Sequence record: HM173637
DNA: 36,661 nt
Direction: 5' to 3' (one strand)
Source of the DNA: Escherichia phage HK75
Part shown: positions 21,020 through 34,441 of the stretch, piece by piece
Layout: each line of letters begins with the position of its first letter
Position numbering within the stretch: the stretch's first letter is position 1
Notes under the pieces: model-generated
What the model saw: the letters and a program-made list of their open reading frames with translations, nothing else
Told to the model about the DNA's origin: nothing
Databases searched by the model: none
Program-made: the position numbers and the translations under genes

Positions 21020-21065
21020 ATTCGTAATGCGAAGGTCGTAGGTTCGACTCCTATTATCGGCACCA
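21020..21065 (+). other. attP core: 3' 46 nt of a tRNA-Thr(CGU) gene (anticodon loop to CCA end), thrW-like
   Basis: ATTCGTAATGCGAAGGTCGTAGGTTCGACTCCTATTATCGGCACCA: anticodon loop with CGT, T-arm GTAGG-TTCGACT-CCTAT, acceptor 3' strand plus ACCA; no matching 5' half upstream. Confidence 0.75.
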
Positions 21066-21079
21066 TTTAAATCAATAAG

Positions 21080-22240
21080 TTACCTAGCATTTAAGTAAAC
21101 TACGTTCTCCTCTTGTGCCGTATTTGTGCCATTGCGACTTATAATCGCATCGATTTTGCTCGCGTGCTCGGTGAGATGCCCGGCTGAAAGGTGGGCGTAT
21201 CTTTGAACCATTTCGAGAGTTTCCCATCCTCCCATCTCTTTAAGTGCAAGAAGAGAGACACCGGACTGAACCAGCCAGCTTGCCCAAGTATGCCTCAGGT
21301 CATGGAAGCGGAAGTTGCTAATGCCTGCCCGCTTTAACGCTCCCTTCCATGCCTTGTTGCTGTCGGTTCTCATCTTCCTTACCGATGCTGTTTTTGTTCC
21401 GTCGCTTCGGTAGGCAGGTTTGGTGTGGACAAACACCCATCTCTTATGGAGACCCTGCTGTTTTCTTAATATCTGGCATGCGGTTTCGTTAAGAGGAACT
21501 CCGATCGCATTGCCAGCTTTTGTTTCATCAGGGTGCATCCATGCCATTTTCTTATCCAGATCGACCTGTGACCACTCAAGGTCTGTAACGTTGGAACGGC
21601 GAAGGCCTGTCGTGATTGCAAACATGACCACAGGGAAGAAATGAGGAGCAATTTCTGCAAACAGGCGCTTCGATTCCTCCTCTGTAAGCCATCTGATCCG
21701 TCCATTCTTAACGCGTGGTGTTGATATTTTTGGCGCCCTGTCAAGCCATCCCCATTCAACAGCCATATTGAGAATAGCGCGAAGTATTGCCAGATGCCGC
21801 GTCTTCGTTCCTTTGCTTGCCAGCTTTGGTTTATACTCCGGCACTGGCTTGCCAAGCCGCAAACACCTGTCCCGGCTCATTTCCCAGTTCAGGCGATGGC
21901 GGCGGTTTTCCATCCCGTCTACCGCCTCCATTATTTTTTCTGATGTTATGTCTGAGAGAATGGTTTCTCTGAAGTGCAACATCCAGAACGATATAATGCT
22001 CTTGTCATCATCAATGGACTTCTTATCCGATTTCTCTCGCAGCCACCGTATGCAGGCTTCCTTGAATAGCTTTTTCGGTGATTCCCCGAGATTTTTTACT
22101 CTCCACGCTTCTGCTTTCAGACGATCGTGAAGTTCTTGCGCTTGCCTTTTGTCCGATGTTTCAAGAGAGCGTCTAACTCTTGATCCATCTGGCGCGACGA
22201 AATCACAGTGCCACGTGCCACCGCGTAGTTTGATTGACAT
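21080..22240 (-). CDS. int: Tyrosine integrase (P22-like, tRNA-Thr-specific)
   Basis: 386 aa; C-terminal FHDLRHTWASWLVQ...RYAHL with catalytic R-H-R-Y signature; recalled strong resemblance to P22 Int; adjacent to the tRNA-derived att core. Confidence 0.9.
   Translation of the reverse strand: MSIKLRGGTWHCDFVAPDGSRVRRSLETSDKRQAQELHDRLKAEAWRVKNLGESPKKLFKEACIRWLREKSDKKSIDDDKSIISFWMLHFRETILSDITSEKIMEAVDGMENRRHRLNWEMSRDRCLRLGKPVPEYKPKLASKGTKTRHLAILRAILNMAVEWGWLDRAPKISTPRVKNGRIRWLTEEESKRLFAEIAPHFFPVVMFAITTGLRRSNVTDLEWSQVDLDKKMAWMHPDETKAGNAIGVPLNETACQILRKQQGLHKRWVFVHTKPAYRSDGTKTASVRKMRTDSNKAWKGALKRAGISNFRFHDLRHTWASWLVQSGVSLLALKEMGGWETLEMVQRYAHLSAGHLTEHASKIDAIISRNGTNTAQEENVVYLNAR
21113..21128 (+). 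repeat. Integrase arm-type site candidate (P' arm)
   Basis: TTGTGCCGTATTTGTG, direct repeat of 20896-20911. Confidence 0.5.
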
Positions 22241-25530: not shown

Positions 25531-25640
25531 AATAAGACCTCAACTCTTTTCCACCCGTCACGTAATTTACGGGTGATTCGTTCAAGTAAAGATTCGGAAG
25601 GGCAGCCAGCAACAGGCCACCCTGCAATGGCATATTGCAT
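25515..25640 (-). CDS. cIII: cIII-like FtsH inhibitor
   Basis: MQYAIAGWPVAGCPSESLLERITRKLRDGWKR matches the recalled lambda cIII N-terminal/central region; 41 aa from the internal ATG of the 25515-25742 ORF. Confidence 0.6.
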   Translation of the reverse strand: MQYAIAGWPVAGCPSESLLERITRKLRDGWKRVEVLLCAMK

Positions 25641-25703
25641 GGTGTGCTCCTTATTTATACATAACGAAAAACGCCTCTCGTGAAGCGTTATTGGTATGCA
25701 TAT

Positions 25704-32908: not shown

Positions 32909-33093
32909 ACGCCACAATTCAAACGATACCAGAGCTTCTTATCCAGACGCGAGGCAATCAGACCGAAGTGGCGAGGATGCTTTCCTGCGCAAGAGGAACA
33001 GTGCTCAAGTACAACCGAGACAGCAAAGGCGAGCGTCACGTAATAGTTAACGGCGTCCTGATGGTCAAACAGGGCAAAAGGGGAAGACGATGA
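32905..33093 (+). CDS. ninH: NinH-like small DNA-binding protein
   Basis: 62 aa, GNQTEVARMLSCARGTVLKY resembles recalled lambda NinH. Confidence 0.55.
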   Translation: MNATIQTIPELLIQTRGNQTEVARMLSCARGTVLKYNRDSKGERHVIVNGVLMVKQGKRGRR

Positions 33094-33608
33094 GCATAAG
33101 AGAGCTAAACCTCACCAAAGAACAGCACGATTGGCTGAATTGCTGGCTTGAACTGTGGGGCGCATGGGTTTATTCAGGTCGTCTGGAAAAGCGCATGAGC
33201 AGCGTAATAGCGAAGTTCATGGAGAGCGTAGAGCCGGGAAGAGTTATGACAAGGCCAATGTGCAATGATGATGATGGAATGTTGATTTCTCAGGTCGTCG
33301 ATTCCGTCATGTACATTGACAAGAAAGCCTTCGGCATCCTCCTCAGCTACTACGCTCATGGTTCATCTAAGCGAGCAATTGCATCCTACTATCACGCGAC
33401 TGCAAAGCCACGCAAGATGTGTGGACGTGGTGGCGAGGGATGGAGAAAACCTTCACTGGCAACCTGTAGAAACGAAATTGACGACATCCTGAAAGCGTCG
33501 TTATTTGTTTTGTACCAGCCAATGCAAAATGCTTTCAAAATGCGTAAACGTGTTGAGAAAGTTAAGCATGTTGCTGTTAAAAGCCTTGACATGCAATTAT
33601 CCATTTAG
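33090..33608 (+). CDS. Putative late-gene antiterminator (Q-like)
   Basis: 172 aa, last gene before a strong promoter-hairpin-T-run unit and the lysis cassette; several Cys; position-based call. Confidence 0.4.
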   Translation: MSIRELNLTKEQHDWLNCWLELWGAWVYSGRLEKRMSSVIAKFMESVEPGRVMTRPMCNDDDGMLISQVVDSVMYIDKKAFGILLSYYAHGSSKRAIASYYHATAKPRKMCGRGGEGWRKPSLATCRNEIDDILKASLFVLYQPMQNAFKMRKRVEKVKHVAVKSLDMQLSI

Positions 33609-33615
33609 CCATAAT
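33586..33615 (+). promoter_or_regulatory. pR'-like late promoter
   Basis: TTGACA (33586-33591), 18-bp spacer, CATAAT (33610-33615). Confidence 0.45.
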
Positions 33616-33625
33616 TAGAAGGTAA

Positions 33626-33667
33626 GCTGCCGTTAGTGACTCTTAAGTTGCAACGGTGGCTTTTTTT
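33626..33667 (+). terminator. tR'-like terminator shortly downstream of the late promoter
   Basis: GC-containing inverted repeat (GCCGTT...AACGGTGGC) followed by TTTTTTTGTTTG. Confidence 0.4.
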
Positions 33668-33745
33668 GTTTGCACAACAGGTAAGAGCATTGAACCCGCA
33701 GACCTCGCGGAATTGGTGAAAGGTGCCGCGCAGTGCTCTTATCGA

Positions 33746-33872
33746 TGTGGTGAAGCTCAATGGCGAGCTAACAGATAGGCGACAGTGAAAATACTAGTCA
33801 TGTAGCTGACCGCCGCGCGTACTGCAATCGGCAGCGCACCGATGGAAGCCGGTTCGATTCCGGCCGCCACAA
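33746..33872 (+). pseudogene. tRNA-like element / disrupted tRNA (all four arms present, ~59-nt insertion between D-arm and anticodon arm)
   Basis: Acceptor TGTGGTG pairs 7/7 with CGCCACA; D-arm GCTC-AATGGC-GAGC; anticodon-like arm ATCGG-CAGCGCA-CCGAT; T-arm GCCGG-TTCGATT-CCGGC; lacks U8 and U33. Confidence 0.3.
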
Positions 33873-34117
33873 CCCAAACTGAGCCGTAGCCACTGGCTAT
33901 CCTGAATTCATCAGTGATAGTTACGCTGCGGCCTTCTACACATGACCTTCGTGAAAGCGGGTGGCAAGAGGCTGCGCTAACAACCTCCTGCCGTTTTGCC
34001 AGTGCATATCGGTCACGAACAAATCTGATTACTAAACACAGTAACCTGGATTTGTTCTATCAGTAATCGACCTTATTCCTAATTAAATAGAGCAAATCCC
34101 CTTATTGGGGGTAAGAC

Positions 34118-34441
34118 ATGAAGATGCCAGAAAAAAATGACCTGTTAGCCGCCATTCTCGCGGCAAAGGAACAAGGCATCGGGGCAATCCTTGCGTTTGC
34201 AATGGCGTACCTTCGCGGCAGATATAATGGCGGTGCGTTTACAAAAACAGTAATCGACGCAACGATGTGCGCCATTATCGCCTGGTTCATTCGTGACCTT
34301 CTCGGCTTCGCCGGACTAAGTAGCAATCTCGCTTATATAACGAGCGTGTTTATCGGCTACATCGGTACTGACTCGATTGGTTCGCTTATCAAACGCTTCG
34401 CTGCTAAAAAAGCCGGAGTAGAAGATGGTGGAAATCAATAA
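34118..34441 (+). CDS. S: Class I holin (lambda S-like, dual-start)
   Basis: 107 aa beginning MKMPEK (Met1/Met3 dual-start motif), three TM segments, near-identical to recalled lambda S. Confidence 0.9.

Follow-up and report, generated by a model that had tools for sequence, protein, structure and literature searches.

A five-armed RNA on a tRNA frame in the late leader of Escherichia phage HK75, one of two types of a widespread phage RNA family

Between gene Q and the lysis genes of Escherichia phage HK75 (sequence record HM173637; its 36,661 nucleotides (nt) are called the window here) lies a sequence, at 33746-33872, that has all four arms of a transfer RNA (tRNA) and what looks like a 59-nt insertion. 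The original prediction, made from the letters alone, left it between a decayed or interrupted tRNA, a tRNA-like regulatory structure of the late leader and a secondary attachment-like site, which raises the question of what this element is. Comparison across 57 distinct copies indicates that it is a conserved non-coding RNA with a five-armed structure on a tRNA frame, neither a decoding tRNA nor a pseudogene. It belongs to a widespread family of phage RNAs as one of its two interchangeable types; we call the form seen in HK75 type A.

All of the pairings predicted for the four tRNA arms are present. The acceptor-like stem joins TGTGGTG (33746-33752) to CGCCACA (33865-33871) at seven of seven positions, including one U-G pair, and the D arm, the anticodon-like arm with its stem of 5 base pairs (bp) and 7-nt loop, and the T arm all form where they had been placed. 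The parts of the element, which we refer to as module E2, are as follows.

33746..33752, + strand: 5' strand of the acceptor-like stem (stem P1), UGUGGUG; the E2 closing stem is UGUGGUG / C(G/A)CCACA
33755..33768, + strand: D arm, GCUC-AAUGGC-GAGC, in which the equivalents of G18 and G19 are invariant
33771..33825, + strand: extra (fifth) arm, with a basal helix ACAG/CUGC (consensus GCAG) and a distal helix GGCG-A-CAG / CUG-AC-CGCC
33793..33798, + strand: self-complementary hexamer ACUAGU in the apical loop of the fifth arm, the proposed kissing (dimerisation) site
33827..33843, + strand: anticodon-like arm, AUCGG-CAGCGCA-CCGAU, in which A33 and C37 replace U33 and purine 37
33848..33864, + strand: T arm, GCCGG-UUCGAUU-CCGGC, in which the T loop is canonical and the G53-C61 equivalent invariant; it abuts the 3' acceptor strand
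33865..33875, + strand: 3' strand of stem P1, CGCCACA (33865-33871), and the tail ACCC

The absence of U8 and U33 was confirmed, with A8 at 33753 and A33 at 33833. A 4-nt spacer, GGAA, separates the anticodon-like arm from the T arm. There is indeed additional sequence between the D arm and the anticodon-like arm, but its length is about 56-57 nt (33770/1-33826) rather than 59, and it does not interrupt the structure: the stretch is itself a conserved, covarying arm. Its junction strands, AUAG and GCGCGUA, are conserved and its apical loop spans 20 nt (33786-33805) in the window. The window copy has a private G to A change at 33771, so that the arm's base carries an A-C mismatch.

Established tRNA detectors miss the intact element. 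ARAGORN finds neither a tRNA nor a transfer-messenger RNA (tmRNA) in the window, nothing at the element reaches the gathering thresholds of Rfam 15, and the Rfam tRNA model (RF00005) has no match at E<=10 across 33550-34150. Together with A8, A33 and C37, these results agree with the earlier description of the element as not a standard tRNA. At a permissive threshold the Rfam model of tmRNA matches in part, with 20.2 bits (gathering threshold 47), and over the T arm and 3' strand only. However, ARAGORN with its default settings recognises a 71-73-nt tRNA, 'Arg, GCG', between exactly the ends first predicted if 33770-33826 is cut out in silico, which shows that the four arms have true tRNA geometry. 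A covariance model of the type-A family scores the window at 148 bits. The matches that rank next are real tRNAs, which it aligns from end to end while skipping the 58-nt arm; the tRNA-Asn of phage P1, at 34.5 bits, is an example. Because real tRNAs rank next-best under this model, a tRNA ancestry of type A is plausible. A specific ancestor was sought and cannot be named, the type-A core being 59-67% identical to both phage tRNA-Asn and phage tRNA-Thr.

We collected the 57 distinct type-A sequences by a distant BLAST search, a metagenome scan and a viral scan that had the anticodon-like arm as its anchor. The metagenome scan used a 16-mer from the D arm and returned mostly chance matches in coding sequence, the real ones being L316, L329 and L364 only. 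Among 22 close variants, 99% of the cells are paired and five pairs are compensatory, which none of 500 shuffles matched. Among 31 diverse variants aligned with MAFFT, 95.8% of the cells are paired, as against 29-46% in slid controls; 15 pairs have double-sided changes, in 107 cells, and none of 500 shuffles reached any of five measures. The suspicion that such a coincidence of arms is unlikely to arise by chance is thereby borne out, and the helices are kept throughout the 57 distinct homologues; unconserved pairing in related phages, along with covariance models giving no signal, had been named as what would refute the element.

The compensatory changes extend to every part of the structure. 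The basal helix of the fifth arm changes from GCAG/CUGC to GUGU/ACAC and GGG/CCC, and its distal helix exists in two sequence classes that both pair, with compensatory changes in five of the six distal pairs. T-stem variants include GCUGG/CCAGC, GUUGG/CCAAC, GAUGG/CCAUC, GCAUG/CAUGC and GUAGG/CCUAC, and the anticodon-like arm has a compensatory AUUGG/CCAAU version (L329) and the loop variants UAGCGCA and CAUCGCA. Loop and junction nucleotides of type A are invariant. The anticodon-like loop follows (C/U)A(G/U)CGCA with C35 and G36 invariant, and A8, A33 and C37 are identical in 57/57 copies, the pattern of the scan that found most of them having fixed A33 and C37. G-U pairs outnumber A-C pairs by 53:11 in type A (70:14 in the wider family described below), which shows that the structure belongs to the RNA of the + (late mRNA) strand and not to the DNA.

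RNAalifold arrives independently at the same five arms. Three points temper this conclusion. The single-sequence fold is weak, only marginally better than shuffles (z of about -1.9); since folding energy alone is unconvincing, the case against chance rests on the comparison. The type-A set comes mostly from enterobacterial phages. Several of the compensatory changes are common by descent, so that independent events are fewer than the cells counted.

These data bear directly on the two explanations that treat the element as a tRNA gene. According to one, a late-leader tRNA took an insertion and lost its function. Such a history would account for the ARAGORN-callable core, for the tRNAs found in the same slot in relatives, for the missing U8, U33 and purine 37, and for the mismatch at 33771. 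A decaying gene is nevertheless hard to reconcile with 57 copies in at least five genomic contexts, spread over several phage groups, in which every helix, that of the supposed insertion included, is kept by compensatory change, or with the invariant loop and junction nucleotides and the near-full-length copies in 158 of 5426 complete E. coli genomes (~3%). We regard a decayed or interrupted tRNA as highly improbable. According to the other, this is a real decoding tRNA of the arginine type, with anticodon GCG, and either loses its extra arm or functions in spite of it, as the Arg(GCG) call after in-silico removal and the invariant C35 and G36 might suggest. But A33 and C37 break two near-universal rules of the anticodon loop, the arm is conserved rather than dispensable, CCA is neither encoded nor conserved, and a sister type described below is without any anticodon arm; moreover, we know of no bacterial splicing system for position 26/27. 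A decoding role thus appears the least credible of all the explanations considered here.

The position of the element in the phage genome provides a second line of comparison. The window is a P22-like (Lederbergvirus-type) temperate phage with a Q gene of the phage 21 type at 33090-33608, and three features precede the element.

33586..33615, + strand: late promoter pR', TTGACA-18-CATAAT, found by promoter scan; it overlaps the 3' end of Q and is homologous to the pR' annotated in Sf6
33626..33667, + strand: late-leader terminator tR', GCUGCCGUU...AACGGUGGC and then a U run; it aligns with the terminator annotated in Sf6
33680..33743, + strand: E1 companion domain, with a 13-bp closing stem GGUAAGAGCAUUG (33680-33692) / CAGUGCUCUUAUC (33731-33743) around a variable interior, from the fold

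Together with E1, which ends 2 nt 5' of it, the element falls within the 450-nt untranslated stretch between tR' and the lambda-type holin gene S, which starts at 34118. Transcription beyond tR' in lambdoid phages requires read-through by the Q-modified polymerase, and from its location 3' of tR' the element would be transcribed only upon such read-through. In Sf6, BTP1 and many relatives, tRNA-Asn and tRNA-Thr fill the slot between tR' and a block of ~245 nt 5' of S, and phage 21 has the same two tRNAs there according to its record notes, so that related phages do carry tRNA genes in this slot, as had been noted. The genome paper of phage L reports tRNAs at this same place (PMC8022706). In the window and ~120 IMG/VR contigs the slot is occupied instead by the two adjoining modules E1 and E2. 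The window holds no second copy of the element, its N leader included.

Some further observations concern this region. The ~245-nt block from the element to the start of S (33873-34117) is near-identical in the window, Sf6, CUS-3 and 611R6 and much better conserved than the slot upstream of it; it probably contains the known translation-control structure of S. In HK629 (L004 360-1075) an HNH endonuclease gene with its own upstream terminator sits between pR' and a second tR' hairpin, and this insertion and the second hairpin copy lie just 5' of E1-E2. Elsewhere in the window, the sole Rfam match at gathering level is the Lambda cIII thermoregulator (Lambda_thermo; 25595-25653, - strand, 88.5 bits), which confirms a lambda-type early-left operon on the minus strand.

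The E1 stem is common to at least six different interiors among types A-H, and other taxa have equivalent stems of different sequence. An E1 module bears a T arm in L088 and in phage P1, and in L126 a true tRNA stands in its place. The 3' strand of the stem (33731-33743), GUGCUCUUAUC in the window and GUGCUCUUUCC in most relatives, resembles boxA (rrn UGCUCUUUA, lambda CGCUCUUA). For the strand GUGCUCUUA we note no more than this likeness, given that it is base-paired here and that the stem sequence differs in other taxa.

The interior of E2 exists in many unrelated versions. In types B-H (HK629, CUS-3, HK620, phage P1 and others) it contains a 5' hairpin UGCGCA-GGCUGA-UGCGC and a 3' hairpin GCCGG-AGAUCAGCA-CCGGC whose loops are complementary (GCUGA/UCAGC); this sister, or kissing, type is the one without an anticodon arm. 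We scanned for the exact pattern of the types B-H 5' hairpin in one genome per species and obtained at least 120 loci; the matches listed come from Enterobacterales, Burkholderiales, Xanthomonadales, Aeromonas and several metagenome-assembled genomes (MAGs). Among 111 distinct elements listed, 96 have 7 nt after the 3' hairpin that pair at six or seven of seven positions with the 7 nt before the AA linker. Elements of this wider family were anchored on the 3' hairpin only and the P1 stem played no part in their detection; even so, the four outer positions of the closing stem have 26, 25, 27 and 8 double-sided changes, which none of 500 shuffles matched. The 5' loop was fixed by the search pattern, and the 3' loop nearly always contains (U)CAGC, or (U)CAGU, which is compatible through wobble pairing. 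In front of most members stands a long stem that resembles E1 but is unrelated in sequence.

The kissing type (L125-L244) has a near-invariant GGUGAAUGCGCAGGCUGAUGCGC ... GCCGGAGAUCAGCACCGGCCACC and is found in Gamma- and Betaproteobacteria and in some MAGs assigned to other phyla. Identical interiors recur in distant genera (L043b with L129; L135, L159 and L244), which suggests discrete 'cargo' classes; examples are E. coli with Chitiniphilus, and Kluyvera with a Pelagibacterium MAG. In phage P1 the ban operon has tRNA-Asn, tRNA-Thr and then three consecutive E1-E2 units (L369, AF234172, 1200-1900). One of these has the E1 with a T arm and one an E2 with the shortened loops GCUAAG/AAGCA; the plp and upl coding sequences run on the opposite strand across the units and may be spurious. 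Other members lie in tRNA arrays: L126 is arranged as tRNA-element-tRNA, and L218, L165 and L043 also have adjacent tRNAs. Non-enteric members are often in the early-left operon of a prophage, ~2.4 kb 3' of a cI-like repressor gene and before recT/exo-type genes. We looked for a linked protein gene and found heterogeneous genes downstream; the sole recurrent neighbour is that cI-like repressor ~2.4 kb upstream, which recurs because of the early-left operon context.

Lambda itself retains a reduced version (NC_001416; L124 389-530, lambda 44788-44929). Its E1 stem is GGTAAGAGCA...TGCTCTT, its E2 closing stem TGTGCTG...CAGCACA shows a compensatory change of G-C to C-G relative to the window, and its interior is short and seemingly degenerate. 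A hairpin in that interior, CCGG-AAGCAGAA-CCGG, recalls the 3' hairpin of the family.

Type A and the kissing type have in common the closing stem, the AA linker, the GCCGG/CCGGC 3' stem, E1 and both main contexts. Both are present in the late leader after tR', and in the slot between nutL and N type A is found in BIS08P22 and many IMG/VR contigs and the kissing type in L138, L150, L153, L208, L219 and L233. The window conforms to the frame of the family, with a 7-bp stem ending in GUG/CAC, AA, a D arm, and a T arm abutting the 3' strand, and the type-A covariance model aligns a kissing element weakly (14 bits), placing its P2 at the D arm and its P3 at the T arm. Where the kissing type has GCUGA facing UCAGC, the window loops have the canonical D-loop GG and T-loop UUCGAUU. 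Because frames and slots are common to the two types, we infer that the Watson-Crick kissing pair may functionally replace the elbow formed by the D and T loops. The constant feature of the family would then be a mimic of the 'top half' of a tRNA. In the N leaders (L138, L150, L153, L208, L219, L233 and L367), a CCAAAG-loop-CUUUGG hairpin stands 5' of the element and CACCAAAG 3' of it; CUUUGG could pair with either partner, an arrangement that may switch between alternative structures in the stretch from nutL to the start codon of N.

The proposal of a tRNA-like regulatory structure in the late leader was partly right: the element is a tRNA-like structure and it lies there, after pR' and tR' and before S. 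A role specific to the late leader is not supported: the element is also found in N leaders, in Skatevirus/Seszw Salmonella phages, where E1 and type A are antisense to both flanking (tail-region) genes and ~95 nt behind a sigma-70-like promoter site, TTGACA-17-TAGATT, and in Pantoea phage PdC23, where type A follows a ref-like nuclease gene. These stand-alone contexts are independent of a leader and argue for a self-contained RNA.

The apical loop of the fifth arm adds a different kind of evidence. Alignment columns 49-54 (window 33793-33798) are self-complementary in 31/31 of the MAFFT-aligned sequences, in six versions (ACUAGU, UCUAGA, UCGCGA, GCUAGC, ACCGGU and the wobble-paired UCUGGA). 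Its outer pair is UA in 17, AU in 13 and GC in 1, the middle pair CG in all 31, and the inner pair UA in 21, GC in 7, UG in 2 and CG in 1. Since neighbouring bases of a single molecule cannot pair with each other, this covariation is most simply read as an intermolecular loop-loop duplex, that is, a homodimer. The hexamer might alternatively be bound as DNA by a dimeric protein, which would count against a dimeric RNA; we disfavour this, since such a site would conserve the sequence and not the palindromy, and the stem of the loop covaries as RNA.

The same data weigh on the broader proposal of a DNA-level feature, be it a mosaic boundary, a recombination site or a palindromic protein site, with the paired flanks as by-products. 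The CUS-3 record annotates 'boundary sequences' flanking the variable block (L003 350-413, 705-945), exchange points between types coincide with the closing stems, and the apical hexamers are DNA palindromes. However, G-U pairs far exceed A-C pairs, so the pairing is selected on one strand only; a protein site would not be expected in six different palindromes; and the closing stems covary across phyla with unrelated sequences. Nor is a secondary attachment-like site supported, as the same G-U excess indicates RNA and the real attP core lies elsewhere. This P22-type (thrW) core, at 21020-21066 on the + strand, adjoins the integrase open reading frame (21080-22240, - strand) and is a perfect fragment of the tRNA-Thr T arm and 3' acceptor (…GGTCGTAGGTTCGACTCCTATTATCGGCACCA), the only other T-loop match in the window and unrelated to the element. 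Overall we consider an explanation at the DNA level very unlikely.

These data allow us to hypothesise how the element might work. In the reading that we favour, and to which we assign an even chance, 33746-33871 and 33680-33743 are a non-coding RNA gene on a tRNA frame whose product is excised, dimeric and acts in trans as a tRNA mimic. Production of the RNA would need Q read-through of tR'. The host tRNA-maturation machinery would then excise it, with RNase P cutting at U33746 and 3' trimming near ACC, as suggested by the 12-bp acceptor/T minihelix without spacer in the window copy, the canonical T loop, the G53-C61 equivalent, the ACC tail and the members in tRNA arrays; in L043, L126, L165, L218, phage P1 and Sf6, family members have true tRNAs as neighbours or are replaced by them. 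A stable RNA of ~130 nt would accumulate and pair with a second copy through the palindromic loop of the fifth arm, and the dimer could act on a factor that recognises the tRNA shape. Of an arginine-type loop, the anticodon-like loop CAGCGCA retains C35 and G36, but it cannot decode because of A33 and C37; a non-decoding, arginine-like loop fits the expectation for a mimic or decoy.

Several observations sit less easily with this scheme. Position -1, just before the putative RNase P cut, is A in the window and not the preferred U, and the tail is ACCC rather than ACCA. The tail is C-rich across the family (variants AUCC, ACAC and UCAC), CCA is unconserved, and A8 stands in place of U8. A target of the apical loop was sought in the window and only chance-level 9-10-mers were found. 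The candidate targets of the dimer are pure conjecture on our part: a defence nuclease that attacks tRNA, or a host enzyme of processing or modification.

The element might instead act in cis, as a processing or insulation signal ('tRNA punctuation') whose released RNA has no function of its own. In this case a cut by RNase P or RNase E would free the downstream mRNA of the antitermination leader (pR'-qut-tR', or nutL) and determine the 5' end and the stability of that mRNA. Consistent with this, both types lie just 3' of the antitermination loading site and 5' of the first gene, in late and N leaders alike; the interior of the kissing type is highly variable, as a spacer would be; and the N leader of lambda has an RNase III site at the equivalent place. 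A spacer would not, however, require the fifth arm, junctions, palindromic loop and anticodon-like arm of type A to be conserved or covarying. Copies with no leader to process, on the opposite strand in Skatevirus and after the nuclease gene in PdC23, and the recurrence of identical interiors in distant genera also point away from it. We judge a role in cis unlikely overall, though far from negligible; a cis-only signal is possible especially for the kissing members with unconserved interiors. An excised mimic acting in trans remains our preferred reading for type A.

A stable RNA is known from the homologous place in phage P22. Small-RNA sequencing of P22 infection has described a stable 96-nt RNA, P22B, that ends 16 nt before gene 24 (PMC13397905). 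Its locus, the leader from nutL to gene 24, is homologous in position to the N-leader slot of type A. The P22 leader (L441 233-330) has a 7-bp closing stem ACUGGCG/CGCCAGU around UGUGGUGGAGCUU..., and P22B maps inside it; by its sequence this domain looks like a rearranged relative of type A that lacks a recognisable T loop.

We found no existing description that fits the element. Rfam 15, searched at gathering thresholds and permissive E-values with the window and representatives of every type, contains no fitting family, its matches being limited to Lambda_thermo elsewhere in the window and neighbouring true tRNAs. PGAP gives no annotation at the element in 340 E. coli genomes. Phage records are blank or mislabelled: in phage 611R6 a 'polyubiquitin-A' coding sequence lies over E1 and the 5' part of E2 (L002 394-519), and in Salmonella phage vB_CECAV_048 a 58-nt 'tRNA-Ser' covers the 3' part of the element only (L365 672-729). 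A literature search that included the motif strings found no published description; subscription journals were thinly covered, so an older report is possible. Three candidates from the literature were set aside: the Pas small RNAs near Stx-type holins and the UG27 RNA arrays are different things, and the M3 RNA of phi80, a non-tRNA substrate of RNase P, was not matched by any such element in the phi80 late leader. Reviews describe M3 RNA as hairpin-like and without a T loop. We therefore treat the element as a novel member among tRNA-like non-coding RNAs, and its extension to a family may deserve more.

Few RNAs resemble tRNA, among them tmRNA, viral tRNA-like structures and Y-RNA modules, and each of these has proved informative about biology. 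The element is abundant and yet unannotated or mis-annotated, in ~3% of complete E. coli genomes and in many Salmonella, Klebsiella, Pantoea and P1-like phages. One family, in one slot, would join two solutions to the elbow, the canonical D/T-loop contact and Watson-Crick kissing. The element also shows covariation in favour of RNA homodimerisation, something seldom seen among natural RNAs of bacteria. The family occupies the most heavily transcribed non-coding slots of temperate phages, namely the late leader, the N leader and tRNA arrays, and its interiors are exchanged like accessory genes, the pattern expected of host-interaction or counter-defence functions. More tentatively, and on the doubtful side in our estimate, a large and unrecognised class of RNAs may exist in the tailed phages of Proteobacteria, in which a copy of the top half of tRNA, the acceptor/T minihelix plus elbow, is the frame for exchangeable functional interiors. 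The window type would then be a tRNA-derived member that forms kissing-loop homodimers and is a decoy or inhibitor of a host or defence factor that recognises tRNA, for instance an anticodon nuclease or a tRNA-Arg-specific enzyme, and the lambda late leader would hold a vestige.

The element can be compared with several known systems. With the canonical tRNAs of its relatives (tRNA-Asn and tRNA-Thr of Sf6, BTP1, the phage 21 record notes and the phage P1 ban operon) it has in common the genomic slot, the 7-bp acceptor stacked on a 5-bp T stem, the UUCGAUU T loop, the D-loop GG, the 5-bp/7-nt anticodon-like arm and a 4-nt variable region; unlike them it has a conserved arm of ~56 nt at 26/27, A8, A33 and C37, no encoded CCA, and a length of 126 nt. 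Its order of 5' acceptor strand, D-arm analogue, large insert, T arm and 3' acceptor strand, and the A at position 8, are those of tmRNA, but it lacks a tag reading frame, a ring of pseudoknots and the G3-U70 pair. The palindromic loop is comparable to the dimerisation initiation site (DIS) of human immunodeficiency virus type 1 (HIV-1), also a 6-nt palindrome in an apical loop with A-rich flanks, whose sequence varies by lineage while its palindromy is kept; in contrast, the loop here has 14-20 nt and sits on an arm of a tRNA-shaped RNA, and its dimerisation is proposed from covariation only. The bacterial Y-RNA-like YrlA and the stable RNAs C and D from the tRNA cluster of phage T4 are likewise non-coding, contain tRNA-like modules and are encoded by or near phages and tRNA genes; their roles are unknown or sponge-like. 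YrlA differs in its permuted topology and in ending in a Ro-binding stem, where the element ends in an acceptor-like stem, and no Rfam family, YrlA included, explains the element at E<=10. A parallel in design is the engineered 'tRNA scaffold' of the Ponchon and Dardel approach, in which a cargo RNA is placed in a tRNA frame for cellular processing and stabilisation. The family likewise combines constant tRNA-like frames with swappable interiors, but it is natural, and in most of its members the elbow would be made by a Watson-Crick kissing pair and not by D and T loops.

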